Sequence record: PV660454
Length of the DNA stretch: 52,979 nt
Strand: one strand, 5' to 3'
From: Escherichia phage LF82-11
This document shows positions 6,020 through 51,029 of this stretch, in pieces. Position numbers and translations under genes: made by a program. Positions within the stretch are counted from its first letter, which is position 1. The number at the start of each line of letters is the position of its first letter. The notes beneath the pieces are model-generated. The model had not been told where the DNA came from. It was given only the letters and a program-made list of their open reading frames with translations, and searched no databases.

Positions 6020-6047
6020 TTGACCGTTTAGCAAAAAGTGCTATTAT
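6020..6047 (+). promoter_or_regulatory. sigma70-like promoter for major capsid gene with an embedded inverted-repeat box
   Basis: TTGACC, 16-bp spacer, TATTAT; spacer contains TAGCAAAAAGTGCTA. Confidence 0.5.
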
Positions 6048-6090
6048 TGACGCGTGACCTAATCACGCATTCAATCAAAAGGAAAATGTT

Positions 6091-7044
6091 ATGACCATGA
6101 AACTTGATTCATTCGAGCAGAACGAAATTACGGTAGGCCTTCGCAAGATGGGTGTTGCGGCAAGCAAAGCGGATCGCCTGGGTATCTGGACTGTAGAGCA
6201 GATGAAGCAGACGCTTAAGCGTCAGTATGAAGCGGCTTATCCCGAAACATCAGCGCTGGCGCTCTTCCCGGTTACAACCGAAATTGCACCAACAACCCGC
6301 ATCTTCGAATACATGAAGATTGACGGCGTGACCATGGCGAAAATCATCGCGGATTATACTGACGATCTGCCTCTGGTTGATGCGACCCATAGCCTGGAAA
6401 CAGGCCGCGTACACCGCCTGGGTAACGCGTGGATGATTTCCATTGACGAAATCAAAACTGGTGCGGCGCTGGGTTCTTCCCTGTCTGACCGCAAGGCAAC
6501 ACTGGCGCGCGAAGCGCACGAAACGCTGGTGAATACTCTGGTGTTCCAGGGTTCCAAGCCTCACAAAATTCTGTCTGTGTTCGACAACCCGAACATCACC
6601 CGCGTAACTTCAGCGGCTGGCGCGTGGGCTGACCCTGAAAAGGCAAGCGACGAACTGACGGATCTGATTGAGAAAATGGAAACCCTGACCAAAGGCAAGC
6701 ACAAGATCACCGATATTGTGATCCCGCCTTCTCAGCGTAAGATCCTGGCTAAGCGCATGCCGGAAACCACGATGAGTTACTTGCAGTGGTTTGAGTCTCA
6801 GAACGGCGGTATCACAATTAGCTCAATCTCTGAGCTTGAAGATATCGACGGCATCGGTACCAAAGGCATTCTTGCCTACGAGAAAGACCCGATGAACATG
6901 AGCATCGAGATCCCGGAAGCATTCAACATGCTCCCAATGCAGCCTAAAGACCTGCATTTCAAAGTGCCTTGTACGTCCAAGACTACTGGCCTGATCGTTT
7001 ATCGTCCTCTGACGATTATCTTGCTGGTTGGCGTAGGTAAGTAA
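6091..7044 (+). CDS. major capsid protein
   Basis: 317 aa, own strong promoter and terminator, position in head module. Confidence 0.55.
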   Translation: MTMKLDSFEQNEITVGLRKMGVAASKADRLGIWTVEQMKQTLKRQYEAAYPETSALALFPVTTEIAPTTRIFEYMKIDGVTMAKIIADYTDDLPLVDATHSLETGRVHRLGNAWMISIDEIKTGAALGSSLSDRKATLAREAHETLVNTLVFQGSKPHKILSVFDNPNITRVTSAAGAWADPEKASDELTDLIEKMETLTKGKHKITDIVIPPSQRKILAKRMPETTMSYLQWFESQNGGITISSISELEDIDGIGTKGILAYEKDPMNMSIEIPEAFNMLPMQPKDLHFKVPCTSKTTGLIVYRPLTIILLVGVGK

Positions 7045-7048
7045 GACG

Positions 7049-7080
7049 AAGCCCCTGATTAATTTCAGGGGCTTTTTTGT
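7049..7080 (+). terminator. rho-independent terminator
   Basis: AGCCCCTGA-ttaatt-TCAGGGGCT then T6. Confidence 0.55.
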
Positions 7081-7109
7081 TGACACGCTGCCGGAAAGTT
7101 TTGTATATT
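7080..7109 (+). promoter_or_regulatory. sigma70-like promoter
   Basis: TTGACA, 18-bp spacer, TATATT. Confidence 0.45.
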
Positions 7110-7147
7110 GACGGCTCACAAACAAGTAAACCAAAAGGTGAATTATC

Positions 7148-7414
7148 ATGGCTGCAAAGAAAAACGTAATGAAGAACATTGGCGCTTGCCTGGTGCGTAT
7201 CGGCATGGTGGATGTTAAGCCGAACGAAACGATTGAGCTGACAGACGAACAGCTAAATTCACAGGGTGTTAAATCCCTGCTACACCGTGAGGTTTTGGAG
7301 TTCGAAGATGATCCGAAGCGCACGCGTGAACTTCTCGAAGTGATTCGCAAGAAGGCGAAACCAAAAGAAGAGAAGACCATTGAACAGCGTGAGAAAGCGC
7401 CGGATATCGAATAA
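7148..7414 (+). CDS. small Lys/Glu-rich protein with own promoter and terminator
   Basis: 88 aa, RBS AAAGGTG; bracketed by promoter and terminator. Confidence 0.35.
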   Translation: MAAKKNVMKNIGACLVRIGMVDVKPNETIELTDEQLNSQGVKSLLHREVLEFEDDPKRTRELLEVIRKKAKPKEEKTIEQREKAPDIE

Positions 7415-7460
7415 CCGAAAGGGGGCGTAATGCTCCCTTTTTTTATACCTGGAGGAAACC

Positions 7461-7868
7461 ATGAACGAAGATGAAATGAAGATCGCAGAGATTATGCGAA
7501 AGCTTGCGCCAGCGCTAAAGAACGTGCCAGATCAGACGATTGTTGTTTGGATTAACCTTGCGGAAATGTTCGTGTGTGCCAATAAGTTTGGCGACAAGTA
7601 TCACCAGGCCGTCGCACTCTATACGATGCACCTGATGTTCCTTGATGGCGCGATGAAGGGCGAGAAAGAAACTCTTGAGAGTTATTCACGTCGTGTAACG
7701 TCATTCACTCTGAGCGGTGAATTTTCCACGAGCTACGGGGCAGTGACCGCCAATAATACCGGGCGATCAATCCATGATACGCCATGGGGCAAAATGTACG
7801 ATATTCTCAACAAGAAAAAAGGCGGCGGGTTCGGCCTGATTTCAGGAATCAGAGGTTGTGGGCGATGA
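7461..7868 (+). CDS. head-tail connector / adaptor-like
   Basis: 135 aa, first of four translationally coupled neck genes. Confidence 0.35.
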   Translation: MNEDEMKIAEIMRKLAPALKNVPDQTIVVWINLAEMFVCANKFGDKYHQAVALYTMHLMFLDGAMKGEKETLESYSRRVTSFTLSGEFSTSYGAVTANNTGRSIHDTPWGKMYDILNKKKGGGFGLISGIRGCGR

Positions 7869-19643: not shown

Positions 19644-19717
19644 TGGTGTTTCCTCGATTCGTTTATTTAAATTGATTATATCCACCAATCAGGGCGCGTG
19701 CTTAGCAATTCGTGCTA

Positions 19718-20368
19718 TTAGTTCCACCCAAGGAATCGAGCCATTGGAATCTTTAGGTTTCCGCGACCGTTGAAAATATCATTAAACCCTCGCTGATTTC
19801 GTCTGATCCATGTAGTCTGCAACTCCGAGCCAGTCCAGCGCATGAGGTTGCCAGAGTAACCAGAGGCAACGCCATCCGTTGACATTTCACCCATGCAGGA
19901 CTCCCACAGAAAGAATGGGTTGTAACCAGGTGATACGCTGGCAACGTTACCCTCAAGAGGCCAATTCCCGGCAACCTCAAGGAAGCCAGTTACACGAGGC
20001 ATTGAGGCAGCGCCCAAAGCAGACCAGATCAGTTGCCCGGAACCGTCGAACACGTCAAGCACGCCAGATGGAAAGTTTGCGTTTCTGGTTGTCCTGATCA
20101 CGCGGATTGAGTTTGGTAGGAACATATCAGATCCCGGAAACCCCCACGCGCCGTTAGAAAGAAATTGCACCCAATGCAAATATCCGTCTTGCTTCCTCGT
20201 GTTTTGGTTTAGGTAAGCCAGTGAGCTTATGTTGCCAAAAGGTGTGTTTAGGTTGTAGTCACCAGTATTTAAATATGACGGGTTGAAAGATGAGTGGTAG
20301 ATCGTGTGTTTCTGATCTGAGTTAATCATCATCGCCCCGGCGTTATTGTATACCTCAAAACCAGGCAT
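19718..20368 (-). CDS. Asn/Gly/Ser/aromatic-rich protein, paralogue of downstream gene
   Basis: 216 aa starting MPGFEVYNNAG; internal DGSGQLI; good RBS. Confidence 0.4.
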   Translation of the reverse strand: MPGFEVYNNAGAMMINSDQKHTIYHSSFNPSYLNTGDYNLNTPFGNISSLAYLNQNTRKQDGYLHWVQFLSNGAWGFPGSDMFLPNSIRVIRTTRNANFPSGVLDVFDGSGQLIWSALGAASMPRVTGFLEVAGNWPLEGNVASVSPGYNPFFLWESCMGEMSTDGVASGYSGNLMRWTGSELQTTWIRRNQRGFNDIFNGRGNLKIPMARFLGWN

Positions 20369-21176: not shown

Positions 21177-22232
21177 ATGAATCCAACAAGACCTGAATCA
21201 GATTTTTTCTGGTTCACCAGCGATGAAATGCCGAACGATTTTTACCACGACAAAGAGGCATGGACTTTTGATTTCGTATCAGGCTCCAGCCTTTGCGACA
21301 TTCACCAATCGTCACCCGCTTCATGGTTCTTCGCCAAAAACGAGATCACAAAGGCGCTTGAGTTTGGTACTCAGTCACACACCAACTTTGAATCGAAGTC
21401 GCTGTTTGATGCAACGTATCGACGCGCACCAGCCCCGGAAGACTTCGAAAACTTGATTACGTCTCAGGCAGCGCTGGCTACGAAGTTGAAATCATTCGGC
21501 CTGACTGGTACAAGCGGGAAGCAATATCCAGAGCTGATCAAAATGATGGTTGATTGCGGTGAAGATCTTAACGTGTTGTGGCTTATTGATATGATCGCAC
21601 AGTGCCAGGCTTGGGCTGATGGCGTTGAGTTGGTCAAGGCTGAGGATTACGACAAGTGCAAGATGATGCGCGCCGTTCTGGAATCAGTGCCGGAATACGC
21701 AATGATGATGGAAAGCCCAACGGCAATGCACGAGCTTTCATTGTTCGGAAAGATCAGCGGCGTTGACGTAAAAGTCAGACTTGACTACGTTGACACGGTT
21801 ACTGATCCAAACCTCATTCGTCATTTTGGGTACGATCCAGAGCTACACCCTGAAATCATTGTGATTATGGACTACAAAACGACGAGCAGCGCCAACCCGG
21901 CAGATTTTGACCGAAAGGCATTCGATCTTGGGTATTATCTGAAGATGGCATTGCAGCGTGATTTATTCGTCAAAGTGTACGATGAGAAGCGCCCCGTTTG
22001 CTTGGTTCTGCTTACACAGGAAAAGAAAGAGCCATTCTTGCCACTTGGAAGGCCAATGACGCGCGAGCAGCTTCTTTTAGGCCGCAAGCAGTATATGGGT
22101 GTCATTCACACTTACTCGATCTGCAAGGAATCAAACGTTTGGCCTGGCTATGCAAACGGCGCTCCTTTCGTTAGCCTTGAAACGCCTGACTACATCAAGC
22201 GCCAGCATAAGGATATTTTCGGCGGAGAGTAA
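21177..22232 (+). CDS. PD-(D/E)xK-type exonuclease (recombination)
   Basis: IVIMDYKTT D-x-K motif; ATG 21177 with GAGGAA RBS (track start 21174 is GTG). Confidence 0.5.
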   Translation: MNPTRPESDFFWFTSDEMPNDFYHDKEAWTFDFVSGSSLCDIHQSSPASWFFAKNEITKALEFGTQSHTNFESKSLFDATYRRAPAPEDFENLITSQAALATKLKSFGLTGTSGKQYPELIKMMVDCGEDLNVLWLIDMIAQCQAWADGVELVKAEDYDKCKMMRAVLESVPEYAMMMESPTAMHELSLFGKISGVDVKVRLDYVDTVTDPNLIRHFGYDPELHPEIIVIMDYKTTSSANPADFDRKAFDLGYYLKMALQRDLFVKVYDEKRPVCLVLLTQEKKEPFLPLGRPMTREQLLLGRKQYMGVIHTYSICKESNVWPGYANGAPFVSLETPDYIKRQHKDIFGGE

Positions 22233-22274
22233 TAGCACTAAAAGCTAAACAAAAGCGGTGATGTTTGGTATAAT
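22233..22274 (+). promoter_or_regulatory. box-promoter module
   Basis: TAGCACTAAAAGCTA, 21 bp, TGgTATAAT inside a hairpin loop. Confidence 0.5.
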
Positions 22275-26006: not shown

Positions 26007-26021
26007 TAGCACGAATTGCTA
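26007..26021 (+). promoter_or_regulatory. orphan inverted-repeat box
   Basis: TAGCACGAATTGCTA between primase terminator and tail-fibre start; no -10 at the usual spacing. Confidence 0.4.
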
Positions 26022-26044
26022 AAACGCATTATATCAGGCATTCA

Positions 26045-27073: not shown

Positions 27074-27532
27074 TCATTGATTAGCTTTTCGTGCTTTCAG
27101 TGTTTTCCAGGATGGTTGCTCCGGCTTGGTTTCTAACTCTTCCTTTCTCACCACGCGCAGCATGTGACGCTTTTTGCATCGGACTGTTAGCGGCTTGCCG
27201 TTGCCGTCGAATGACAGATCAGGGCGGCACCACGACGCGCGGAAACCTCCGCCATTTCGTTTATATGCGTTGTGCGCCAGTTGCGCGCCTCGCGCTGAAA
27301 TCATGCCGCGTTGCCGCCACTCATAAACAACCTGAAGCGAAACGCGCAATTCTTTCGCCAGCTTTGCAGGTGAGCCGTAGAATTCAAGGATGGTATCTAA
27401 TCTAGCCTTAAGCCCGGCCTTTACTTCGTCTCGTAAAACATAGTAACCTACTGGACGTTTTCGGCGCTTAGCGTCACTTCCGCGCTTCGTTCCATTGTTC
27501 CCATTAAGCGTGCGTTTATCTACGGTTTCCAT
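27074..27532 (-). CDS. basic HTH-type DNA-binding protein
   Basis: LAKELRVSLQVVYEWRQRG resembles a Cro/YdaS-like helix-turn-helix; Arg/Lys-rich. Confidence 0.35.
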   Translation of the reverse strand: METVDKRTLNGNNGTKRGSDAKRRKRPVGYYVLRDEVKAGLKARLDTILEFYGSPAKLAKELRVSLQVVYEWRQRGMISARGAQLAHNAYKRNGGGFRASWCRPDLSFDGNGKPLTVRCKKRHMLRVVRKEELETKPEQPSWKTLKARKANQ

Positions 27533-27545
27533 AATTATTCCTCAA

Positions 27546-27588
27546 TAGCATTTTTTGTTAAAACTGGATTGTTGAGGCGTGTATTATA
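27546..27588 (+). promoter_or_regulatory. box-promoter module upstream of helicase
   Basis: TAGCATTTTTTGTTA, about 21-22 bp, TATTAT. Confidence 0.45.
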
Positions 27589-29694: not shown

Positions 29695-30110
29695 TTACTG
29701 ACAAGGGCGATTATCTTGAATATTACACCCCTGATAAGGGGTGTACCCTGAAGGAAGAGACTCACCAGGTTAACGGCGTTTCGTGGCTAAAGTACCACTA
29801 CCCAAACCTGATGTTTTGGCACACGGTCAACGAGGGGCAGAAGCACATAAACACAGCCCTAAAAGATGAGCAAGCCGGGCTTAAGAAAGGTGTCAGCGAC
29901 TTCGTATTTCTGATTGGTCATTTCGATCGGAAATATTGCTTTGGGGCTATTGAGCTGAAGCGCACCAACAAGAGCGGAAAGTACAAGGCATCACCAGTCA
30001 GTAAGGAGCAGAAAGCTTTCCTTCTCGGTGTGCGTGAACGTGGGGGGTTCGCGGCTGTGGCTTACGGATTCGAGGAGTTGAAGAAAGCCGTTGAGGACAT
30101 GATGAAATAG
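29691..30110 (+). CDS. VRR-NUC family nuclease
   Basis: 139 aa with D...ELK PD-(D/E)xK core; ATGA-coupled to helicase. Confidence 0.55.
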   Translation: MITDKGDYLEYYTPDKGCTLKEETHQVNGVSWLKYHYPNLMFWHTVNEGQKHINTALKDEQAGLKKGVSDFVFLIGHFDRKYCFGAIELKRTNKSGKYKASPVSKEQKAFLLGVRERGGFAAVAYGFEELKKAVEDMMK

Positions 30111-30150
30111 CACTATTTGCTAAACCTGTGCCGGAACAATCCGGCATAAT
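30108..30150 (+). promoter_or_regulatory. box-promoter module
   Basis: TAGCACTATTTGCTA, 22 bp with TGCCGG/CCGGCA hairpin, CATAAT. Confidence 0.5.
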
Positions 30151-30896: not shown

Positions 30897-31109
30897 ATGG
30901 CTACTGCATTCGGACTGTATAAGGCAAAAGTTATTCGCGCTCTGATGGCGGCTGGATTCAAGCACAACGCGGAGGAATTCGCTGATTGCCTTGATATGAG
31001 CTTTGACGAGATCAAGCATCTTCACCACACGCAATGGGGAGAATCAATCAAGCGCGATCTCGAAGAGTACCGGAAAGAGAATCCGCACGAATTCGCAACA
31101 CAGCACTAA
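30897..31109 (+). CDS. hypothetical protein
   Basis: 70 aa, starts 3 nt after dam stop. Confidence 0.3.
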   Translation: MATAFGLYKAKVIRALMAAGFKHNAEEFADCLDMSFDEIKHLHHTQWGESIKRDLEEYRKENPHEFATQH

Positions 31110-31143
31110 TTGCTAAACGTACCCGGCGAAAGTCGGGTATTAT
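31101..31143 (+). promoter_or_regulatory. box-promoter module
   Basis: cAGCACTAATTGCTA, 22 bp hairpin, TATTAT. Confidence 0.5.
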
Positions 31144-31977: not shown

Positions 31978-33114
31978 ATGTCACTGAAGAAAATCACCGA
32001 CGAGCAGTTAAACGCCGAGCGAGAGTCGGGTAAAACTTACCGCCAGATCGCGGAAGAGTACGGAATGAACATACGCACCGTCGAGGCTCGCGGCGCACGC
32101 CTGGCTAAGAAAGGTTTCGGTCACGGTAACGGCGATGCATCGCGATTTGTTCCAGAAGGCTTCATGGTTAAGGGCACATCAACCATGCACCGCGCGAACG
32201 GAGAGGTTATCGTTAGCTGGACGAAAACCAATCAGGATCATGAGAAGTTAGCCGCCATGCTTGAGCACGCGATCGAGGCGTTTTGCGTTGAGCTTCCACG
32301 CGCAGCCGCTACACCTTCCAACGTTGGTGAGGTGATGGAGAACCAGCTCGCGCTTTATCCTGTATTCGATCTGCATATCGGTGCAATGGCTCATAAGCAT
32401 GAGTGCGGCGAGAACTACTCAACCGATATTGCCGAGAAGGTTTTGGGCGATTTCTTCAAGTACGCTGTGAACGTTGCGCCGAAGGCGAAGAAGGCGGTTG
32501 TGCTGGTTGGCGGTGACTACCTCCACTCTGACGGCCTGGACGCTGTAACACCCGCAAGCGGTCACGTTCTGGATCAGGACTCACGTTACGCTAAGCTGGT
32601 TCACGTTGCCATTCGCTCACTCCGTCGCGGCGTTGCGCTTCTGCTTGATAAGCATGAAGAGATTGAGATCCAGATTATCGAAGGCAACCACGATCAGGCG
32701 GGTATGATTTGGCTACGCGCTGCAATGGCGGCATACTTCGAAGATGAGCCGCGCGTCACGGTTGACACATCGCCTATGATCCTTCACCGTACCAAGTGGG
32801 GCAAAACGCTGTTAGGCTACACTCACGGTCACACGATGAAGAAAGCAGAAACCCGCCTCCAGGCGCTGGCTACTGACTTCCGTTCTGAGTTCGGCACGAG
32901 TGAATTCGTTTATACTCACTCAGGGCATTGGCATCACCAGACGCTTACAGAGCACACCTTAGGCATTGACGAGGTTCACGGTCAGTTAGGTGCCAAAGAT
33001 GCGTATGCGGCTCGCGGTGGATGGCGCTCATATCGCCAGGCGGCGGTAATTGTCTATGATAAAGAATTTGGCGAGGTAGGCCGATTCGTTTATCGTCCTC
33101 AGATGAGCAAATAG
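31978..33114 (+). CDS. calcineurin-like metallophosphoesterase with N-terminal HTH
   Basis: DLHIG, GGDYLHSDG and GNHD motifs; N-terminal GKTYRQIAEEYGMNIRTVEARGARL HTH-like segment. Confidence 0.55.
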   Translation: MSLKKITDEQLNAERESGKTYRQIAEEYGMNIRTVEARGARLAKKGFGHGNGDASRFVPEGFMVKGTSTMHRANGEVIVSWTKTNQDHEKLAAMLEHAIEAFCVELPRAAATPSNVGEVMENQLALYPVFDLHIGAMAHKHECGENYSTDIAEKVLGDFFKYAVNVAPKAKKAVVLVGGDYLHSDGLDAVTPASGHVLDQDSRYAKLVHVAIRSLRRGVALLLDKHEEIEIQIIEGNHDQAGMIWLRAAMAAYFEDEPRVTVDTSPMILHRTKWGKTLLGYTHGHTMKKAETRLQALATDFRSEFGTSEFVYTHSGHWHHQTLTEHTLGIDEVHGQLGAKDAYAARGGWRSYRQAAVIVYDKEFGEVGRFVYRPQMSK

Positions 33115-33154
33115 CACTTTTTGTTAAAAGCCGATCGCGTTGGTCGGCTATACT
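33112..33154 (+). promoter_or_regulatory. box-promoter module
   Basis: TAGCACTTTTTGTTA, 22 bp with GCCGA/TCGGC hairpin, TATACT. Confidence 0.5.
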
Positions 33155-36842: not shown

Positions 36843-36870
36843 GTTAAAAACTCCTTGTTTGGTTGCTCAA

Positions 36871-36913
36871 TGATAGAGCAACCAATGATAGTGCGTTTTG
36901 GCAAAAAGTGCTA
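36871..36913 (-). promoter_or_regulatory. box-promoter module (minus)
   Basis: box read on minus strand, hairpin, TATCAT-like -10 at about 23 bp. Confidence 0.4.
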
Positions 36914-36917
36914 TTGG

Positions 36918-37363: not shown

Positions 37364-37406
37364 ATAATAACAAAACCCGCCGAAGCGGGTTTAACAAAAA
37401 GTGCTA
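37364..37406 (-). promoter_or_regulatory. box-promoter module (minus)
   Basis: TAGCACTTTTTGTTA on minus strand, 22 bp, TATTAT; box starts at stop of upstream gene. Confidence 0.5.
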
Positions 37407-38096
37407 TTTGTAACGGTTGTACTGGAAGACGGCGCGAGCGAATCCGCGCGGAGTTAGGGAGCGGAGTTGCTTAGTCTTCGCAGACTTTCCGCCGAGGAAC
37501 TTCCAGCCCCAAAAGAAATGCAAGCCTTCCTCTTTTGGTAATGGTGCCTTCTCTGGCTCGCGGAAACCGTTGCCATGCCAGATGCAAGTTTTTTTCGTGT
37601 AGCCGTCTCGCAGTGGCATTTTGGGGTGCCAGGAGCCTTCACGCGCATCGACGTATTGCCCGAAGTCACGAGGATGGAAATAGAATTTAGGCTTGCCCAG
37701 GTTTTCCGGCTTTGACATTGCCCCTACCGGGTTTTCAATCATCCACGGGATCTGGTAGCGTTCGCCAATCTCAATGACAACCTTTGCACACTCAAGCGCA
37801 TATTTCATTTCGGCGTCGTCTCTCTCGTGCTGCGCGCCAGATTGGGCAAACAGAGTGCAATCCGGGAAGCCAAAAACGATATCAGGCTTGGGCAACCCCA
37901 GGATCTCAGCCTTTGTGATGAAATCCTTATCAATCCACGTATTCACATATCGGATATTTGGGTGATTCATCTTCACGGCGTACTCGCCATGATTGCCGGA
38001 GTCAGCGTTGAAGCATATCACCTGACAACCAACCTCAGCCCAAGGCAATCCCATAATGCCGGAGCCGTCAAACAGCGACCATACAACACGCTTCAT
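37404..38096 (-). CDS. compact C5-cytosine methyltransferase-fold protein
   Basis: FDGSG (motif I-like), GFPDC (IV-like), ENP (VI-like), RSLTPRGFARA (IX/X-like); only 230 aa so little room for a target-recognition domain. Confidence 0.5.
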   Translation of the reverse strand: MKRVVWSLFDGSGIMGLPWAEVGCQVICFNADSGNHGEYAVKMNHPNIRYVNTWIDKDFITKAEILGLPKPDIVFGFPDCTLFAQSGAQHERDDAEMKYALECAKVVIEIGERYQIPWMIENPVGAMSKPENLGKPKFYFHPRDFGQYVDAREGSWHPKMPLRDGYTKKTCIWHGNGFREPEKAPLPKEEGLHFFWGWKFLGGKSAKTKQLRSLTPRGFARAVFQYNRYK

Positions 38097-39047: not shown

Positions 39048-39090
39048 ATTATTGCAGATCACGCCGATTTAGTTTTAACAAAAAGTGCTA
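39048..39090 (-). promoter_or_regulatory. box-promoter module (minus)
   Basis: TAGCACTTTTTGTTA on minus strand starting at stop of 39088..39435, then AATAAT-like -10. Confidence 0.45.
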
Positions 39091-39435
39091 TTTGATGCCG
39101 TCAAAGGTTGTGTATTTCAGGTTCACACTGACCTTGCCATCATCGAAATGGAAAGCGGGAGCCTCAAAGCGGATGATGTTATTCATCGTTCCGGCCTCTA
39201 CGTAGCGTCGTGCGCCATTTCTCATGGGGATAACGCTGACTCTCTTTGCCGCATCGAATGGATTTGAAACGCCAAAGTATCGACATACAGCGCCGCGCAA
39301 CGCCTCATCTTCATGCTTATGCATATCACGGATGAGGCGATTTTTAGCGTCCATCATCACATCATAGCTTGCACAGCTAGAGCCGATGTTGCTATATTCG
39401 CGCATTCCGCCAACCTTGAATTGATTGTTGTTCAT
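39088..39435 (-). CDS. hypothetical protein
   Basis: 115 aa, ATGA-coupled to upstream gene. Confidence 0.3.
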   Translation of the reverse strand: MNNNQFKVGGMREYSNIGSSCASYDVMMDAKNRLIRDMHKHEDEALRGAVCRYFGVSNPFDAAKRVSVIPMRNGARRYVEAGTMNNIIRFEAPAFHFDDGKVSVNLKYTTFDGIK

Positions 39436-39922: not shown

Positions 39923-39965
39923 ATTATGCCGGGTTTCCGCCCGGCACGTTTAGCAATTAGTGCTA
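39923..39965 (-). promoter_or_regulatory. box-promoter module (minus)
   Basis: TAGCACTAATTGCTA on minus strand, 22 bp with GCCGGG hairpin, CATAAT. Confidence 0.5.
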
Positions 39966-40172
39966 TCAGATTGATTCGATTACCGCGTGGAAATCTTTGC
40001 GGGTTTTGCAGTCTGCCAGGCGTGCATAACATGCTTTAGCGTAGTCAGTATCGGCCTGAGTTTCGAAGATGCCACACTCTTTGGCGATAGCTTTTAATGT
40101 ACGCTTTCCGCTTTCGATATCAGCCTTGATGCCGTTGATGGTGTTGATGTCGATGATGTTAAGAGTTGTCAT
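39966..40172 (-). CDS. hypothetical protein
   Basis: 68 aa ORF. Confidence 0.3.
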   Translation of the reverse strand: MTTLNIIDINTINGIKADIESGKRTLKAIAKECGIFETQADTDYAKACYARLADCKTRKDFHAVIESI

Positions 40173-40209: not shown

Positions 40210-40252
40210 ATAATAGCAAAAGCCAGATCGGGAGTTTTAGCAAAAAGTGCTA
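40210..40252 (-). promoter_or_regulatory. box-promoter module (minus)
   Basis: TAGCACTTTTTGCTA on minus strand, 22 bp, TATTAT. Confidence 0.5.
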
Positions 40253-40314
40253 TTTTCCCGATCCGGCGCGCGGAACATCTGCCCCATGGTTTGGGGTGTT
40301 AACCAGTCAGAGCG

Positions 40315-41629: not shown

Positions 41630-41672
41630 ACTATAGCCGAAACATCCTGAGTGGTTTTAGCAAAAAGTGCTA
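41630..41672 (-). promoter_or_regulatory. box-promoter module (minus), leftward early promoter
   Basis: TAGCACTTTTTGCTA on minus strand, 22 bp, TATAGT. Confidence 0.5.
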
Positions 41673-41690
41673 TTGATTCGATTTATCCAA

Positions 41691-43014: not shown

Positions 43015-43029
43015 ATGGAATAATTGGAA

Positions 43030-43072
43030 TAGCACGAACTGCTAAAACACCAGATCGGGGCTATGCCATAAT
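43030..43072 (+). promoter_or_regulatory. box-promoter module
   Basis: TAGCACGAACTGCTA preceded by GGAATA x2, 22 bp with GGGGCTAT/ATAGCCC hairpin, CATAAT. Confidence 0.5.
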
Positions 43073-43525: not shown

Positions 43526-43830
43526 TGATTTTGAATGACCGAGAGGAGCTACAGGAAGCCGTGAGACTGGCGCTAAAATCAGACGTGCCATTTATCGAAG
43601 TTGTGCTTTGCGTGGCTGCCAGCCTCGATGTACGGCCCCGTGTGGCTGCTTTCATGGTTCACTCTAACACCTTCGATATGGCTGGCACATTCCAGGGTGA
43701 TAAATTCCTTGAATTCTTGATGCAGCTAACCGATAAGTTCGAAGCCATGCATCCTGACCGGATAAGCGCCAGTGGGCAGATCCTGATCGAGGAGTTCACC
43801 AACTTTGTGATTCGCGGTACATGGCGATAG
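43522..43830 (+). CDS. hypothetical protein
   Basis: 102 aa, ATGA-coupled. Confidence 0.3.
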   Translation: MMILNDREELQEAVRLALKSDVPFIEVVLCVAASLDVRPRVAAFMVHSNTFDMAGTFQGDKFLEFLMQLTDKFEAMHPDRISASGQILIEEFTNFVIRGTWR

Positions 43831-43870
43831 CACTTTTTGTTAAACGTGTGCCGGGCTAATCCGGCATACT
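43828..43870 (+). promoter_or_regulatory. box-promoter module
   Basis: TAGCACTTTTTGTTA starting at stop codon, 22 bp hairpin, CATACT. Confidence 0.5.
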
Positions 43871-44179: not shown

Positions 44180-44499
44180 TGAAAAAGTTTGTCGGATCGT
44201 GTTTGCTGGTTTCTGTCCTGGCGCTGGCGTTCATCGCTCTCGCAGGGTGTGACGACTCAACCCGCGTGCCTCGTGAGCAGCGTAGCAAGGTGCGGGTCAC
44301 AACGGCTGAATCCGGGCGCGTGCAGGTGCGCAAGATCAGCGAATTCCGTGACGACCTGGCTTATGACAGCTATCGAGGCGTGTACATCATCACGGACACT
44401 GAAACCGGGCAGGAGTTCATAGGCGTTAGCGGTGTTGGTATCAGTGCTATCGGGCAACACAATTGCGGCAAAAACTGCTGGAAGAAAGATGAGAGATAG
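44179..44499 (+). CDS. lipoprotein (Asp at +2, +3)
   Basis: MKKFVGSCLLVSVLALAFIALAGC lipobox then CDD...; start at ATG 44179 overlapping upstream stop. Confidence 0.5.
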   Translation: MKKFVGSCLLVSVLALAFIALAGCDDSTRVPREQRSKVRVTTAESGRVQVRKISEFRDDLAYDSYRGVYIITDTETGQEFIGVSGVGISAIGQHNCGKNCWKKDER

Positions 44500-44539
44500 C
44501 ACTTTTTGTTAAAACTGCCCGGAGCGATTCGGGCATAAT
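44497..44539 (+). promoter_or_regulatory. box-promoter module
   Basis: TAGCACTTTTTGTTA, 22 bp with GCCCG/CGGGC hairpin, CATAAT. Confidence 0.5.
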
Positions 44540-45311: not shown

Positions 45312-45408
45312 TGCAATCGGCGCGGCATGTCTTCTTGCTTCCGTCACTGTGGTTGCGGTTGGCGCTGTTTGGCTAATGGCAAAAATATTGCGTGAGATTG
45401 ACGAATAG
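45304..45408 (+). CDS. small single-TM membrane peptide
   Basis: 34 aa from ATG 45304 within track ORF 45196..45408. Confidence 0.3.
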   Translation: MINAIGAACLLASVTVVAVGAVWLMAKILREIDE

Positions 45409-45448
45409 CACGAATTGCTAAAACGGCATGGCTCCTGAGTGGTATCAT
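45406..45448 (+). promoter_or_regulatory. box-promoter module
   Basis: TAGCACGAATTGCTA, 22 bp with CGGCATG/CATGCCG hairpin, TGgTATCAT. Confidence 0.5.
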
Positions 45449-45480: not shown

Positions 45481-45846
45481 ATGAAAGTTAAATGCATTAG
45501 TTCAGACGTTTTGCTTGATGGTTACTACACCCCAGGTAGAGTCTACCGATTAAGGCGAGAAAGGGGCAAAAGCTATAGAACCGTTAAATCAAACAGAGGC
45601 GTTGATCTTGGTGTTATCCACGACCCATTAAAAAGAGGTCGGTTTTTCGTTGCTGGATTTGAACGTTGTGTGTTTGATTCGGCTCCGCACCGATTCGTGA
45701 AGCGCAACCAAAGCGCCGCGCTGGGGCAGATTGAGATCGACTATACGCGATGCAAGCGCAGCATTCGCAATCAGGCTCGCAACATCGCAAAAGAGCACTT
45801 CTCGTGCGGCAAGCTTGAGAAGATTGCGCGAGGCTATAAGCGATAG
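45481..45846 (+). CDS. paralogue-family protein (MKVKC)
   Basis: start moved to ATG 45481 with GGAG RBS; MKVKCISS...YTPGRVYRL. Confidence 0.4.
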   Translation: MKVKCISSDVLLDGYYTPGRVYRLRRERGKSYRTVKSNRGVDLGVIHDPLKRGRFFVAGFERCVFDSAPHRFVKRNQSAALGQIEIDYTRCKRSIRNQARNIAKEHFSCGKLEKIARGYKR

Positions 45847-45886
45847 CACTTTTTGCTAAAACTTCCGCAAGGGCATTTGATATAGT
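45844..45886 (+). promoter_or_regulatory. box-promoter module
   Basis: TAGCACTTTTTGCTA, 22 bp, TGaTATAGT in loop of AAGGGCA/TGCCCTT hairpin. Confidence 0.5.
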
Positions 45887-45926
45887 GCCCTTATTGAAGC
45901 AGAGCAAACCAATCAGAGGATTCAAC

Positions 45927-46749: not shown

Positions 46750-46750
46750 T

Positions 46751-46939
46751 ATGCAGATCTACAAATCGCCAGGCGGAGCAAGATATGTCGTTGTTGATGG
46801 CGTTGTTTACTGCAAGCCAGCAGATGGAAGCATGGTTTACAGGCCGCGCATGACGGTTGAGCGATATCTTGAGCTTATCGCTGGCGGTCTTCTGACATTC
46901 CATTGCGTTATTCGCCCGGTAATGTTCAAAAAGCACTAA
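46751..46939 (+). CDS. hypothetical protein
   Basis: 62 aa, RBS GGGGG. Confidence 0.3.
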   Translation: MQIYKSPGGARYVVVDGVVYCKPADGSMVYRPRMTVERYLELIAGGLLTFHCVIRPVMFKKH

Positions 46940-46973
46940 TTGCTAAAACTTGCTAAGAGGCATTTGTTATAGT
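46931..46973 (+). promoter_or_regulatory. box-promoter module
   Basis: aAGCACTAATTGCTA, 22 bp, TGtTATAGT in loop of AGAGGCA/TGCCTCT hairpin. Confidence 0.5.
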
Positions 46974-47011
46974 GCCTCTTGTCGAGTTAACACAAATACA
47001 GAGGATTTGAA

Positions 47012-47716
47012 ATGAGCATTCAACGCTACTACCCTGAAGTGAAGTACACAGTGCGGGAAACTCGCGTTAATATGGCTCCACACGAGCGCGGAAGCTATGT
47101 GACCTATGAATCACACATCGAAGAATTGCGCCGCGTACAGGCCGAATTAGACGCCTTAAAAGCGATGCAAAAAAGCGATTTTTTCTATCACCTAAAGCCA
47201 GTCTTCGAAAAGGCGCTTGAAGAGGCGATTGCTATCGTCGTGAAGCAAGCCAGCCAATCAGTTTTCAAGGTTGACGCTGAGGCGCTAATTGCTGCTGACG
47301 TTGGCCGTTGGATGGAGAAGCACATGAACGAGCGCGCCGGATTTGCAACTGGCAGCCTGTTTGTGGGTGATGTAGAGGTTGATTTCGACAACAACAAAGT
47401 CAAGATCACCGATGCGCTAATCAAGAGCGGCGTTGTGACTGAAAGCGAATTATTCTCTTTCCCTAAGGCACGAAAGAACATTGTCGTTTGCACAAGCGCC
47501 GATGAAGGTAGCGGTTTCACTATTGGAAAGAAATACGCATTCGATCGCAATGAAGGGAACATTATCCGAATCTGCCAGGATGATTTTGTTTCAGATCTCG
47601 CAGAGGATGATTGCTGGATTGCAAGCCGCCGCCGAAACCTGGTAAGCGGTGAATTCAGATACTTCTTACAGGGGCATACAGAAGGCAAGCGCGCATCTTT
47701 CGAGATCGTTGAATAG
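47012..47716 (+). CDS. hypothetical protein with C-terminal paralogue-family domain
   Basis: 234 aa; C-terminal NIVVCTSADEGSGFTIGKKYAFD matches family motif. Confidence 0.35.
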   Translation: MSIQRYYPEVKYTVRETRVNMAPHERGSYVTYESHIEELRRVQAELDALKAMQKSDFFYHLKPVFEKALEEAIAIVVKQASQSVFKVDAEALIAADVGRWMEKHMNERAGFATGSLFVGDVEVDFDNNKVKITDALIKSGVVTESELFSFPKARKNIVVCTSADEGSGFTIGKKYAFDRNEGNIIRICQDDFVSDLAEDDCWIASRRRNLVSGEFRYFLQGHTEGKRASFEIVE

Positions 47717-47756
47717 CACGAATTGTTAAACGGGCATGTGTTCCGACTGGTATCAT
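47714..47756 (+). promoter_or_regulatory. box-promoter module
   Basis: TAGCACGAATTGTTA, 22 bp, TGgTATCAT. Confidence 0.5.
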
Positions 47757-47786
47757 GTGCCAACACAAACAAGCAAGGGGCTTTAA

Positions 47787-47954
47787 ATGTTCGAAGAAAA
47801 GAAACACAGGCCGGAACAAGCTTACTCAAGGGTATCACGCACCGTTAAAGAGCGTAGGCGCTGGGTTAAGTATTTCATGAATCAAGGCCACACCAGATCG
47901 GTTGCGATTGGCCTGGCTAAGTGGGCAACAAACAACTACAACGGGAAAAACTGA
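47787..47954 (+). CDS. small basic protein
   Basis: 55 aa, RBS AAGGGG; not in ORF track. Confidence 0.25.
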   Translation: MFEEKKHRPEQAYSRVSRTVKERRRWVKYFMNQGHTRSVAIGLAKWATNNYNGKN

Positions 47955-49194: not shown

Positions 49195-49195
49195 A

Positions 49196-49238
49196 TAGCA
49201 CTTTTTGTTAAACCCGCTTCGGCGGGTTTTGTTATTCT
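49196..49238 (+). promoter_or_regulatory. box-promoter module with terminator-like hairpin
   Basis: TAGCACTTTTTGTTA, CCCGC-ttcg-GCGGG plus TTTTG, TATTCT. Confidence 0.45.
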
Positions 49239-49267
49239 TGCTTTAACGAAACGAAATGGAGTGAAGA

Positions 49268-49498
49268 ATGAAAACTTTATCAGAGCTGAAGTCGATCGCG
49301 GCTGACTTGCAGGAGCGAATGAAGCCACTAAACCACAAGCTGGAAAACTCGCGCATTACTATAGCCTCAAGAATGTCTATCGAGTGCTCACTGCGCGAAC
49401 TTAAAATCATGTGGCATGATGCCATGTGCGACGTTCACGCTCACCCTGAGTACGAAGGTGAGTTTAAATTCCAGAAAGAAAACAACCCATACCGATAA
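49268..49498 (+). CDS. hypothetical protein
   Basis: 76 aa, RBS GGAG. Confidence 0.3.
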   Translation: MKTLSELKSIAADLQERMKPLNHKLENSRITIASRMSIECSLRELKIMWHDAMCDVHAHPEYEGEFKFQKENNPYR

Positions 49499-49508
49499 GG
49501 ATTCAATA

Positions 49509-49805
49509 ATGAACACTATCAAAAAGTTGACTCCAAACATGGCAACCAAAATCAAGTACGAGATCCCGGAGGATGGCACATTCTTAGCCGTCTGGACTTA
49601 TCGCGAGATCCCGTACTCCGGTACTTATCAATGGCGAAACGGCGAGCTTGCCGTGTGGGTTGATGGCGTTGGCTGGGAAATTGCCGGGCATGGAGCGGCG
49701 GAGGACTATTACGATTTCAACTGCCTCGTGTCTATGGCTAGTGGTGAGAATTACGGCGGTGCTTGTCACTTTGTTGCGGTTGTAGTGGTTGAGGAAACAG
49801 CGTGA
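49509..49805 (+). CDS. hypothetical protein
   Basis: 98 aa from ATG 49509, RBS AAGGA. Confidence 0.3.
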   Translation: MNTIKKLTPNMATKIKYEIPEDGTFLAVWTYREIPYSGTYQWRNGELAVWVDGVGWEIAGHGAAEDYYDFNCLVSMASGENYGGACHFVAVVVVEETA

Positions 49806-49975
49806 AGACTTTTATTATTTTCCTAGTTGGCGCTTGCATGGTTAGCGTTTCTGATAACTTCACAGTTTTCGTTGGCGCTGCGATGGTGTCGTGGGCTTAC
49901 TACCGATGCGGAAAGGCTGACGGAATAGCGGAAGGTAAACGCCAGGCGCTGGCATCCGGCACTAAGTTAAAGTAG
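49802..49975 (+). CDS. possible small membrane protein (GTG start)
   Basis: 57 aa with two hydrophobic segments; ends in TAG that begins next box; not in ORF track. Confidence 0.2.
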   Translation: MKTFIIFLVGACMVSVSDNFTVFVGAAMVSWAYYRCGKADGIAEGKRQALASGTKLK

Positions 49976-50015
49976 CACGATTTGTTAAAAGGGGATTCGT
50001 CCTGACTGGTATAAT
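49973..50015 (+). promoter_or_regulatory. box-promoter module
   Basis: TAGCACGATTTGTTA, 22 bp, TGgTATAAT inside GGGGATT/AATCCCC hairpin. Confidence 0.55.
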
Positions 50016-50045
50016 CCCCACATCAACCAAGCAGAGGAAACGATC

Positions 50046-50498
50046 ATGAAATTAGTTTGCACATCATCACGCGTCAAAAGCTTCACCGTTGGAAAGAAAT
50101 ATGAAAGCCGCACAGTCGAGCATTACGGAATTGTTACGCACGAGGTGGACGGAGACACCGCTTGCGGCTGGGTGATTAACGATGGCCTGAGCATTTGCGG
50201 AGCTGATCACTCAAACCCAATGGCAACTTTCCGCAAGGATAAGAGCATGATGAAGATGCTTGTTCGCGCATTCGTATTGGTTGCAAAGGCTCGCGGTTGG
50301 GGTGATAGCAAGAGCGGGGCTTACAAATCCTGGAGCGGCACACCTTACAAAAACTCCAGAGATTGGGCGCGAGCTATTGCCTTCAGCTACGATGTTGGGA
50401 GTGTTGCGCGCGAGATAATTGATGAAGATCCTAACGTGAAACTCATCGACCAGGAAGCGGTAAACCTGTTTGCCGAAAACGAGATCGACAACTGGTAA
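50046..50498 (+). CDS. paralogue-family protein (MKLVC)
   Basis: MKLVCTSSRVKSFTVGKKYESRT. Confidence 0.4.
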   Translation: MKLVCTSSRVKSFTVGKKYESRTVEHYGIVTHEVDGDTACGWVINDGLSICGADHSNPMATFRKDKSMMKMLVRAFVLVAKARGWGDSKSGAYKSWSGTPYKNSRDWARAIAFSYDVGSVAREIIDEDPNVKLIDQEAVNLFAENEIDNW

Positions 50499-50560
50499 TT
50501 TGCGCAAGGCCGTTTATAATAGCGGCCTTACTCAGACAAACCAATCAGAAGGAAATCACC

Positions 50561-50989
50561 ATGAAATTACGTTGCACATTCCTTGAGCCAGCTTTCGCAA
50601 AAGCTCTGGCTGAGTTCTACACCATCGGCAAAACTTACGCCGCATCCATCAAGCCGGGATCAAAGGTTGGCGCTGTGCTGGTGGAGTCAAACGAAGGCAA
50701 TGAAGGCGATCAGCTTGCAGCAGTTCCGAGCCGCTCAGGGTTCGAGGTTCAAATTAAGAACCAAATTCCGATCGCAAAGTTCGAGGTTGTTGGCAAGCGT
50801 GCGGTGAAGCTTGTTAAGACTGAGAAGCGCGTAACGCTGAAACTTGATGGCGTGGGGAAATCAGATAAGCGCCGATTCCGCCGTGTTTGCCGCCAGTATC
50901 GAAAGTTGAAATTCATCAACCCTGGATTCTATTATGATCTGGAATCCGATCGCCACATGGCTAAACTTGCGCGACATCACCGCCGATAG
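50561..50989 (+). CDS. paralogue-family protein (MKLRC), basic C-terminus
   Basis: MKLRCTF...FYTIGKTYAAS; Arg/Lys-rich C-terminal tail. Confidence 0.4.
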   Translation: MKLRCTFLEPAFAKALAEFYTIGKTYAASIKPGSKVGAVLVESNEGNEGDQLAAVPSRSGFEVQIKNQIPIAKFEVVGKRAVKLVKTEKRVTLKLDGVGKSDKRRFRRVCRQYRKLKFINPGFYYDLESDRHMAKLARHHRR

Positions 50990-51029
50990 CACTTTTTGCT
51001 AAAACTCGAAATCGGGGTTGCGATATAGT
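50987..51029 (+). promoter_or_regulatory. box-promoter module
   Basis: TAGCACTTTTTGCTA, 22 bp, TATAGT in loop of GGGGTT/AACCCC hairpin. Confidence 0.5.

Follow-up and report, generated by a model that had tools for sequence, protein, structure and literature searches.

The genome of the T1-like Escherichia phage LF82-11 (record PV660454), analysed here in full as a window of 52,979 bp, contains 24 copies of a short oriented box, of which 22 belong to forward modules and two are reversed. Judged from sequence, these repeats are real and represent compact intergenic promoter cassettes. The repeat itself was already published in 2024, without known function. Its conserved unit fits the mar/sox/rob marbox consensus, and we lean towards regarding the modules as class II promoters driven by the host activators Rob, MarA or SoxS. 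If this holds true, phage gene expression would be tied to the way bacteria respond to antibiotic and bile stress, and an answer would be given to what a published study leaves as an open question, the function of these repeats (PMC11447400). An initial annotation had considered the modules as promoter-like units with an activator site, which stands; its further ideas of a MotA type, a symmetric dimer and an HTH protein as likely binder find no support, the last of these being unlikely.

Sequence and geometry of the modules

Exact copies of the motif TAGCA-N5-TGYTA number 20, where shuffled sequence predicts 0.08, and four more copies have one mismatch (22233, 31101, 36899 and 46931). All 21 copies of the initial annotation are present where it had placed them. 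Additional to these are a forward module with its box at 19703 on the minus strand, and the boxes at 6029 and 26007, which are reversed relative to the local genes. As had been claimed, box orientation follows the local genes in the forward modules (22 of 22). The 15-bp palindrome, however, is not the conserved unit, which is instead a 20-bp asymmetric sequence, ATAGCAC-N5-TGYTAAA(A)C. When 57 modules from three phages are pooled, information content is limited to positions 1-20; G4 and C5 are invariant, position 10 is W and position 14 is Y in all 57, and position 2 is Y in 56. Within the 5-bp core, individual position pairs show dyad symmetry in 63-96% of copies, whereas pairs 1/17 and 7/11, both near-invariant, are 0% complementary, which speaks against the proposed operator of a symmetric dimer.

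Between the 15-bp box and the -10-like hexamer, a spacing previously given as 21-22 bp, there are 22 bp in 19 modules, 21 bp in two and 23 bp in one. Counted from the 20-bp unit, the gap measures 18 bp in 19 of the 22 modules, and no -35 is present. Since the box is too distant from the -10 to be its -35 partner, it is best taken as an activator site, as originally argued. An extended -10 (TGn), described as frequent, is found in 11/22. The leader from the module to each ATG spans 27-40 nt, and the element precedes the start codon by 73.5 nt (median). Canonical sigma70 promoters show no enrichment in the module-rich 16 kb (16 versus 20.6 expected). Moreover, the TAG of the box is often the upstream stop codon (11 of 22 modules); in two others the stop is a TAA within the box, and in four more it lies at most 4 nt away.

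The forward modules are listed below with box (where given), gap, -10 hexamer with any TGn, and hairpin; a class A hairpin lies inside the gap between box and -10, and a class B hairpin encloses the -10.

19675..19718, minus strand: ATAGCACGAATTGCTAAGCA, 18 bp, TATAAT; without hairpin; predicted to drive 19311-19643
22232..22274, plus strand: ATAGCACTAAAAGCTAAACA, 17 bp, TGgTATAAT; class B hairpin; flanked by the exonuclease and Erf genes
27545..27587, plus strand: GCAT variant, ATAGCATTTTTTGTTAAAAC, 17 bp, TATTAT; without hairpin; predicted to drive the helicase gene; the regulator gene has its own promoter, whose -10 faces and overlaps that of the module
30107..30150, plus strand: marbox, 18 bp, CATAAT; the gap holds the class A hairpin GTGCCGG/CCGGCAC; the VRR-NUC gene ends with the TAG of the box as its stop
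31100..31143, plus strand: ACAGCACTAATTGCTAAACG, 18 bp, TATTAT; GAAA-tetraloop hairpin; upstream stop is a TAA in the box
33111..33154, plus strand: 18 bp, TATACT; class A hairpin
36870..36914, minus strand: ATAGCACTTTTTGCCAAAAC, 19 bp, TATCAT; class B hairpin; predicted to drive the helicase gene 35256-36842
37364..37407, minus strand: 18 bp, TGtTATTAT; C(UUCG)G hairpin and T run, resembling a canonical terminator
39048..39091, minus strand: 18 bp, TGcAATAAT; class B hairpin
39923..39966, minus strand: 18 bp, CATAAT; class A hairpin
40210..40253, minus strand: 18 bp, TGcTATTAT; without stable hairpin
41630..41673, minus strand: 18 bp, TATAGT; without hairpin; the leftward early operon has its first promoter here
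43029..43072, plus strand: 18 bp, TGcCATAAT; class B hairpin; first among the modules in the rightward operon
43827..43870, plus strand: 18 bp, CATACT; class A hairpin
44496..44539, plus strand: 18 bp, CATAAT; class A hairpin
45405..45448, plus strand: 18 bp, TGgTATCAT; class B hairpin
45843..45886, plus strand: 18 bp, TGaTATAGT; class B hairpin
46930..46973, plus strand: AAAGCACTAATTGCTAAAAC, 18 bp, TGtTATAGT; class B hairpin, more stable (-22 kcal/mol) than in any other module; upstream stop is a TAA in the box
47713..47756, plus strand: 18 bp, TGgTATCAT; class B hairpin
49195..49238, plus strand: 18 bp, TGtTATTCT; terminator-like C(UUCG)G hairpin, the same one as in the module with its box at 37392
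49972..50015, plus strand: GTAGCACGATTTGTTAAAAG, 18 bp, TGgTATAAT; class B hairpin
50986..51029, plus strand: 18 bp, TATAGT; class B hairpin

Spacer hairpin and conservation in relatives

A hairpin had been described in almost every spacer. It is confirmed in 18 of 22 modules, which fold with z <= -2.3, but is absent in those with boxes at 19703, 27546, 40238 and 41658. The mean MFE is -12.9 kcal/mol in the modules and -7.3 kcal/mol in windows taken at random from the genome (Mann-Whitney p = 1.4e-7), and the hairpin is retained at orthologous sites in relatives with unrelated stem sequences, a pattern of selection for the structure. The hairpin is probably an RNA 3' element of the upstream gene, in whose transcript it would work as a leaky terminator or 3'-end stabiliser. 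The 18-bp gap of a class II promoter is without sequence constraint, and the phage could place a GC-rich hairpin there or around the -10.

A motif search in related T1-like phages, as originally suggested, recovered the box with its 18-bp gap in T1 and in Sin4, a Klebsiella Webervirus. The box-to-hexamer spacing is thus conserved despite only 50-65% protein identity, and the promoter-like character of the module is upheld; its orientation, spacing and hairpin are real and kept in relatives. Additionally, the T4-type phage Lw1 carries three perfect boxes, co-oriented with its genes, which could be passive hitch-hikers. Small genes of high variability lie beside the cassettes, which may have moved, gene included, into T4-type phages.

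Host activators as candidate binders

The 20-bp unit agrees at every specified position with the marbox consensus AYnGCACnnWnnRYYAAAY (PMC3709825), and the ChIP-derived form GCAHWWWWTGYYAAA likewise fits the box (PMC6900184). A genome-wide search with AYNGCACNNWNNRYYAAA returned 19 perfect and eight one-mismatch copies at boxes, and 30 matches at <=1 mismatch overall against 2.1 expected. The degeneracy of the 57 pooled modules also mirrors the marbox code; at position 19, A is commoner than the consensus Y, and micF (ACAGCACTGAATGTCAAAAC, 18 bp, TAGAAT) also has A there. The micF site is centred at -41.5 (PMC9638938), and class II sites are forward, near -41, without a -35 and with the -10 retained (PMC10268841). 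Because the phage marbox is forward and 18 bp upstream of the -10, it would be centred near -41, as placed from the hexamer, and take the place of the -35.

Each module may therefore be pictured as a compact transcription-unit boundary whose 5' part is a 20-bp consensus marbox, the asymmetric site of the monomeric two-HTH host activators MarA, SoxS and Rob, with the TAG of the box frequently serving as the upstream stop codon. An activator already present in the cell would bind the box first, touch sigma70 region 4 and alpha-CTD, and thereby bring host RNA polymerase to about 22 early/middle promoters without a -35, about half of them with an extended -10 TG. Rob, being constitutive and abundant, is the likeliest candidate, and under stress its effect would be reinforced by MarA and SoxS. 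The phage itself seems to lack such a protein: tblastn with approximate MarA, SoxS and Rob queries against the phage gave only E > 0.8, and no AraC-type HTH appeared among the 25 of 27 Pfam families listed for 61 unannotated ORFs.

There are still some difficulties with host activators. Class II geometry is shared by CRP, FNR and lambda cI at PRM, among others, and the factor cannot be named by spacing alone. Phage LL5, a T1-like phage >90% identical to the repeat carrier TLS, was subjected to a Keio screen in which, as far as the main text reports, only receptor and LPS genes, secB and ppiB emerged, with no mention of rob, marA or soxS (PMC7229145). No single activator is thus likely to be essential, and redundancy or activator-independent basal activity has to be assumed. 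Furthermore, Rob needs inducers for most of its activity, and unstressed cells contain little MarA or SoxS, an awkward fit with a phage thriving in plain broth.

Reversed copies at late promoters

The modules had been described as absent from the structural operon. This is true of forward modules, but reversed boxes overlap two core promoters:

6020..6047, plus strand: major-head-gene promoter; TTGACC, 16 bp, TGcTATTAT; the spacer is a reversed marbox (6029-6043) overlapping the -10
26007..26036, minus strand: tail-fibre-gene promoter; TGATATAAT, 6 bp, then a reversed marbox (26007-26021) over the expected start site

Both reversed boxes are kept in T1, and that at 6029 is half-lost in Sin4. 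The layout at 6020..6047 is that of occlusion, a geometry from which we infer repression. A protein reading the forward boxes would, through these two copies, also occlude the capsid and tail-fibre promoters, a timing that is sensible only with a binder on hand at the very outset of infection.

Alternative explanations

A phage protein could bind the TAGCA-N5-TGCTA dyad as a dimer and activate from about -41, like lambda cI at PRM, the marbox likeness being coincidence or mimicry. The dyad symmetry of the core and the silence of the LL5 screen on host activators favour this, and the most obvious candidate is the regulator at 27074-27532, with a single, confidently predicted Cro-like HTH. It is among the very few non-structural proteins of unknown role common to this phage, T1 and Sin4; its gene is served by a canonical promoter of its own (TTGATG, 17 bp, TGaTATAAT; 27611 to 27583, minus strand), and a reversed box in its 5' leader would permit autoregulation. 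We nevertheless consider a phage dimer unlikely. The half-sites differ in tolerated variation as well as at the two asymmetric pairs, and it is very unlikely that all 13 specified marbox positions, degeneracy code included, would be matched by chance. With a factor made only after infection, the capsid and tail-fibre promoters would start out open and be shut later, which is backwards for late genes. As for the regulator, its predicted recognition helix differs at base-reading positions among phages whose box is invariant, and no homolog was detectable in Lw1 despite its three perfect boxes.

It is quite improbable that polymerase reads the box directly, as an UP-like or displaced -35-like element, the modules being activator-independent extended -10 promoters. 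The UP-element idea is raised in the TLS paper (PMC11447400), the box holds TTGYTA (TTGCTA/TTGTTA) and an A tract, and modules with TGn could work without a -35. Yet the invariant GC-containing core G4-C5-A6-C7 is foreign to UP elements, the box covers about -50 to -31 rather than -59 to -38, TTGYTA lies some 5 bp too far upstream (22-bp spacer), and half of the modules lack TGn.

Least probable of the three are mainly non-promoter roles with an incidental -10, either as oriented roadblocks ('stoperators') for a repressor or as recombination sites for cassette shuffling. Boxes are oriented and intergenic like L5 stoperators, an analogy drawn in PMC11447400; they flank genes wholly different between related phages, similarity between Lw1 and a relative starts exactly at the box edge, and PeSLs are proposed recombination substrates. 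However, T1-like phages are virulent without an evident lysogeny repressor, the -10 at the fixed gap (19/22), kept in three genera, forms a promoter signature with the leader before each ATG, and a recombination role can coexist with promoter function without supplanting it. Sigma appropriation of the T4 MotA type fails on geometry, with no MotA or AsiA among the 25 of 27 matched families listed from the Pfam scan of 61 unannotated ORFs.

Comparison with known systems

T4 MotA/AsiA middle promoters likewise have an activator box in place of the -35 and a good -10 downstream, but the centre of the MotA box (TGCTT) is at about -30, much nearer the -10. The 21-nt direct repeat aaATAGCACnnnTTGnTAAAA of TLS, also in T1, Rtp and Rogue1, is the same element: it shares the consensus, is intergenic and transcription-oriented, and lies about 76 nt upstream of start codons. 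The TLS paper offers stoperator, enhancer-site and UP-element ideas and poses function as an open question, with no mention in its accessible text of fixed -10 spacing, hairpin, marbox match or reversed late-promoter copies (PMC11447400).

PeSL and PmSL, the composite promoter-terminator cassettes of T4-type phages (Arbiol 2010, PMC2839356; Comeau 2014, PMC4122927), are similarly small repeated promoter and stem-loop units bordering small, highly variable ORFans, with similarity between genomes breaking at the motif; PmSL also combines an activator box and a -10 without a -35. PeSL differs in its near-consensus -35/-10 pairs and PmSL in its phage MotA box, where this phage has a host-type marbox with the stem-loop inside the promoter, between box and -10 or around the -10. 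For the reversed copies, pbpG is a precedent for repression by MarA/SoxS/Rob (PMC12052159), with a marbox over the promoter spacer as at the major-capsid promoters of this phage and T1; at the phage promoters, repression is deduced from geometry only.

The closest likeness is to micF-type class II promoters, with a 20-bp asymmetric full-consensus forward marbox, an 18-bp gap, a good -10 and no recognisable -35. In contrast to E. coli, where sites are degenerate, this virulent phage has about 22 near-identical consensus copies in 53 kb; its gap or -10 region has a selected hairpin, its box often supplies the upstream stop codon, and binding of the host protein is putative.

Recurrent modules in the genome

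The core TAGCA-N5-TGYTA occurs exactly at 20 positions of the window against 0.08 expected, and four further boxes (22233, 31101, 36899, and 46931) carry one mismatch, giving 24 in all. Each of the 21 copies listed in the initial annotation is present at its position. That list lacked one forward copy (19703, minus strand), and the boxes at 6029 and 26007 have to be set apart as reversed copies lying on late-gene promoters. Otherwise the module is confirmed as described, namely a box, a fixed gap containing a hairpin, and a -10 hexamer. The box is oriented with the downstream gene in all 22 forward modules. The proposed spacing of 21-22 bp from the 15-bp box to the hexamer largely holds, being 22 bp in 19 modules and 21 bp in two, with 23 bp in one; measured from the wider 20-bp unit, the gap is 18 bp in 19 of the 22. 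The hexamers are TATAAT-like, have an extended -10 TGn in half of the modules (11/22), and precede the start codon by 27-40 nt (median 30.5). As first noticed, the TAG of the box often serves as the stop codon of the upstream gene (11/22); in two modules the stop codon is a TAA inside the box, and in four more it lies within 4 nt of the box. The spacing had also been judged too long for a sigma70 -35/-10 pair, and no -35 is found at 16-18 bp in the modules. Scanning the module-rich 16 kb for paired sigma70 hexamers returned 16 sites against 20.6 expected, none of them at a module.

The 20-30 nt past each -10 (e.g., 30151-30180 and 43073-43100) form A/C-rich leaders of a few recurring types (ACACCAACAA, ATCGAAACGAA, and ATCAATCAAACGAACGAA). 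The ATCGAAACGAAAC leader accompanies the modules of Lw1, a T4-type myovirus, as well. Given this recurrence, the leaders may have a conserved role as 5' UTRs, for instance in enhancing translation or in staying unstructured.

The phage, called LF82-12 here, is a T1-like siphovirus isolated on E. coli LF82 with a complete, circular genome of 52,979 bp; the window is identical to record PV660455.1, Escherichia phage LF82-12/LF82-40. Judged by sequence, it represents a divergent lineage of T1-like phages. This lineage appears to be new, as NCBI places it only in Caudoviricetes and no phage outside the LF82 series has a portal protein more than about 62% identical. Nearly all small early genes in 38000-52900 are without a homolog in T1 or in the Klebsiella phage Sin4 (Webervirus). 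Three features mark the early region.

Features of the early region
41690-42130: divergent control region between the leftward and rightward early operons
42247-42275, plus strand: the sole good canonical sigma70 promoter of the early region (TTGACT, 17 bp, CATTAT)
52382-52469, plus strand: tRNA-Ser gene close to where the rightward early operon ends (annotated, with an Rfam tRNA match)

In the control region, GATGT is repeated four times in tandem (about 41797-41817), TATATA-rich sequence extends over a long stretch (about 41965-42030), and there is a degenerate box, ACCGCACGATTTGCTAAT, on the plus strand at 41863; the region may be an origin or pac region. The canonical promoter precedes the first rightward gene, 42308-42805, which encodes a DUF7174 protein. 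The tRNA was the only match in an Rfam search for known RNA families.

Sequence of the box

The conserved unit is longer than 15 bp and asymmetric, a-TAGCAC-N5-TGYTA-AA(A)C. In 20-bp form it is ATAGCACTTTTTGCTAAAAC, which agrees with the published mar/sox/rob marbox AYnGCACnnWnnRYYAAAY (PMC3709825) and also with the ChIP-derived form GCAHWWWWTGYYAAA (PMC6900184). A search of the window with the 18 specified columns of the marbox found 19 perfect and 8 one-mismatch copies at boxes; all matches at no more than one mismatch number 30 against 2.1 expected.

Position statistics were taken from 57 modules pooled from LF82-12, T1, and Sin4. Only positions 1-20 carry information; outside them the content is about zero. 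Even the degeneracy code of the marbox is reproduced, with A or T always at position 10, C or T always at position 14, and C or T at position 2 in 56 of the 57. No variation occurs at G4 and C5, and little or none across the whole G4-C5-A6-C7 core. An operator for a symmetric dimer, as considered in the initial annotation, does not fit these sites. Dyad symmetry is limited to a 5-bp core, and the pairs 1/17 (A/A) and 7/11 (C/T) are near-invariant with 0% complementarity. Moreover, the left half-site never has the variation tolerated in the right half, with G4 fixed and either C or T at position 14. Asymmetric sites of this kind are read by a monomer with two different HTH motifs (PMC6900184), so the asymmetry of the box points to a reader of that type and not to a symmetric dimer.

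Promoter class

Class II marboxes stand in forward orientation near -41, at promoters with a canonical -10 and no recognisable -35 (PMC10268841; PMC12052159). Placed from its -10, the phage box would overlap the -35 position, with its centre near -41. The structurally characterised class II SoxS/Rob promoter micF has its site centred at -41.5 (PMC9638938). The fetched E. coli K-12 sequence reads ACAGCACTGAATGTCAAAAC, 18 bp, TAGAAT, with the annotated 5' end 7 nt further on, which returns the same centre of -41.5.

Other promoter classes fit poorly. Sigma appropriation of the T4 MotA/AsiA type, to which the modules had been likened, has the wrong geometry, since the box is centred near -41 instead of -30 and is not TGCTT; moreover, neither family was among the 25 listed of 27 Pfam families matched by the 61 unannotated ORFs. 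No module matches the sigma54 promoter TGGCAC-N5-TTGCW at one mismatch or fewer, the box having AG for GG and a spacing 2 bp shorter. An UP element, A/T-rich and bound by alpha-CTD from -59 to -38, does not describe a box that spans about -50 to -31 with a near-invariant GCAC core.

Spacer hairpins

The reported spacer hairpin is borne out by folding, with z <= -2.3 in 18 of the 22 modules and a mean MFE of -12.9 kcal/mol compared with -7.3 kcal/mol in random genome windows (p = 1.4e-7). Two classes are seen. Class A stems fit within the 18-bp gap and stop at the hexamer, and class B stems surround the hexamer. A comparison of stems across related phages, which had been suggested, found the structure retained with different sequences. 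At orthologous sites of LF82-12, T1, and Sin4, the hairpin class is kept and the stems are unrelated (GTGCCGG / TGCCGG / GCCCGGC and GCGGTGAT / TGAGGTG / GGTGCGC), which argues that structure is selected and not sequence. UUCG and GAAA tetraloops at modules 37392, 49196, and 31101 point to a role of the hairpin in RNA. T1 annotators labelled these stems rho-independent terminators. As standard intrinsic terminators they fare badly, only 2 of the 22 passing a simple terminator scan. The hairpin is probably a 3' element of the upstream transcript, acting as a leaky terminator or stabiliser, and it can fit inside the promoter because a class II promoter sets no sequence demands there. One hairpin type, AACCCGCTTCGGCGGGTT, recurs in three nearly identical copies, two within modules and one ending the rightward operon just before terS.

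Copies of the C(UUCG)G terminator hairpin AACCCGCTTCGGCGGGTT
37373-37392
49210-49229
52905-52922

Taken together, these features make it almost certain that the module is a sigma70 promoter of the activator type, fused to the 3' hairpin of the upstream gene.

Occurrence in other phages

A motif search in T1-like relatives, as initially proposed, recovered both the box and the 18-bp gap. T1 has about 22 box copies (18-bp gap in 15) and Sin4 about 14 (18-bp gap in 11). The unrelated siphovirus Wanchaivirus, set aside as a distant T1-like comparison because it belongs to Hendrixvirinae, served as a negative control and has none. Proteins shared by LF82-12, T1, and Sin4 are only about 50-65% identical, and most small genes between the modules are without a counterpart in T1 and Sin4. 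Conserved modules around unshared genes thus behave as conserved boundaries of variable cassettes.

In a scan of viral contigs, boxes lay almost exclusively on T1-like genomes. The exception is complete modules in Lw1 (RB43 group) and a metagenomic relative; the whole Lw1 genome holds three perfect boxes, co-oriented with its genes.

T1-type modules in Lw1 and relatives
L127, 10278 and 10894 (minus strand)
Lw1 record, 92322 (minus strand)
L045, 11505

Two of three Lw1-type modules have a 29-bp gap (18 bp plus one helical turn) and a terminator-like hairpin, followed by TGnTATATT. Between Lw1 and its relative, one hairpin differs by a compensatory pair, and at one junction the similarity begins exactly at the box edge. 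Lw1 gp016, encoded between two modules, shares 42-48% identity with ORFs of T1-like phages. From their sequences, these modules together with gp016 are read as lateral cassette transfer between phage families.

Candidate activators

The initial annotation named the HTH protein at 27074..27532 as a candidate binder. This regulator is conserved in T1-like phages, its gene being carried by 828 phage records, and its AlphaFold model (pLDDT 87.5) contains just one HTH domain, of the Cro type, that best matches Xfaso-1 and N15 Cro. An alignment of 34 members nevertheless speaks against it, since the predicted recognition helix is variable, with the invariant parts elsewhere, whereas the DNA box is invariant. 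Moreover, Lw1 has boxes, and searches of its whole genome detected no homolog of the T1 regulator (best tblastn E 0.46; no match with the family HMM). The most conserved parts of the regulator lie outside the HTH, in an N-terminal basic segment (DKRTxNGNNGTxRG...RKRP) and a C-terminal GFRASFCRPDLRFDxNGKP, and hint at a function beyond simple operator binding. Its gene has its own promoter.

Promoter of the regulator gene
27583-27611, minus strand: TTGATG, 17 bp, TGaTATAAT

The -10 of this promoter overlaps, face to face, that of the plus-strand helicase module, and a reversed GCAT-variant box falls in the regulator's 5' leader. This arrangement could couple the divergent promoters or let the regulator be repressed.

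Other phage proteins were considered as well. A phage-encoded MarA-like protein was found neither by tblastn of the phage with approximate MarA, SoxS, and Rob probes nor as an AraC-type HTH among the 25 listed of 27 Pfam families matched by the 61 unannotated ORFs. The immediate-early DUF7174 protein (42308-42805) has no PDB relative, only seven near-identical homologs, and no counterpart in T1 or Sin4, and therefore cannot explain an invariant box.

The failure to detect an AraC-type phage protein, the variable regulator helix facing an invariant box, and the boxes of Lw1 together favour a host factor. Most likely the activator would be host Rob, MarA, or SoxS, and we infer all that goes further than the sequence, its geometry, and its conservation. 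The main rival is a protein of the phage itself, for example the Cro-like regulator. A Keio screen of the T1-like phage LL5, stated to be >90% identical to TLS, speaks against a host factor, as it reports no single requirement for rob, marA, or soxS (PMC7229145). A host activator must then assume redundancy of the three paralogs or useful basal activity, with TGn in half of the modules. The invariant box and the Lw1 genome count against the Cro-like regulator, and we regard a phage protein as unlikely. Less likely still are recognition of the box by RNA polymerase itself and a function other than that of a promoter.

Late promoters and proposed regulation

The two reversed boxes occupy late promoters. 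In LF82-12 and T1, the major-capsid gene has a strong canonical promoter (TTGACS, 16 bp, TATTAT) whose spacer is a reversed marbox overlapping the -10; Sin4 has kept the promoter (-10 TATTCT) and lost half of the box. At the tail-fibre gene of LF82-12 and T1, a reversed box begins 6-7 bp past an extended -10. A marbox in the promoter spacer is the repression geometry of pbpG (PMC12052159), an arrangement shared by the capsid promoter, where repression would be predicted from geometry. A binder present from the moment of infection would switch the early and middle promoters on and hold the capsid and tail-fibre promoters off. If the factor were made only after infection, the late genes would have the reverse timing. 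This argument rests on logic.

It is possible, albeit quite doubtful, that essentially the whole early/middle programme of T1-like phages (about 22 promoters) is wired to host MarA/SoxS/Rob, with 2-3 late promoters wired repressively, so that development would respond to bile, antibiotics, and oxidative stress. Replicating phage DNA, with about 24 sites per genome copy, could then titrate the activator and act as an early-to-late timer. Cassettes of box, hairpin, -10, and leader would be mobile units, functional in every enterobacterial phage, and their transfer into RB43-type myoviruses would thereby be accounted for.

Significance and comparison with known systems

The repeat itself, found throughout the T1-like family, has already been published. 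As described in a 2024 paper on TLS, 18 intergenic copies of aaATAGCACnnnTTGnTAAAA are oriented with transcription about 76 nt before start codons, and the repeat also occurs in T1, Rtp, and Rogue1 (PMC11447400). The paper suggests a stoperator, an enhancer site, or an UP element, lists the function as an open question, and counts just three sigma70-like intergenic promoters (PMC11447400), a scarcity echoed by the scan of the window, which found no excess of canonical sites. In the literature searched, no paper ties the repeat to the marbox or Rob, and nothing relevant was found on mapped transcription starts of T1-like phages. We read the module as a class II marbox promoter joined to a stem-loop at the cassette boundary. 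A consensus marbox in the class II position turns the published question into simple experiments. If the reading is true, the regulators of intrinsic antibiotic resistance and bile response in enteric bacteria would be needed by, or would tune, a classic family of virulent phages, with a bearing on phage therapy combined with antibiotics, gut phage behaviour, and resistance trade-offs. Additionally, the free spacer of a class II promoter could house a terminator hairpin, offering synthetic biology a compact and portable transcription unit.

Among known systems, the stoperators of mycobacteriophage L5 are asymmetric repressor sites oriented with transcription, in a temperate phage that encodes the repressor. 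The boxes share the orientation. However, their fixed -10 partner indicates a promoter, and no lysogeny functions are annotated in the window. The closest architectural analogues are the PeSL/PmSL cassettes of T4-type phages (PMC4122927), composite units of promoter and terminator, which share with the modules a repeated unit of promoter and stem-loop. These cassettes also border variable ORFans at recombination junctions, as the modules may do in view of their mostly unshared neighbours and the one junction at a box edge. PeSL has a near-consensus sigma70 -35/-10 pair and PmSL a MotA box, whereas the modules have neither, their box being a marbox. With class II marbox promoters, the modules agree in every sequence-level feature, and with micF they share an identical 18-bp gap to the -10.
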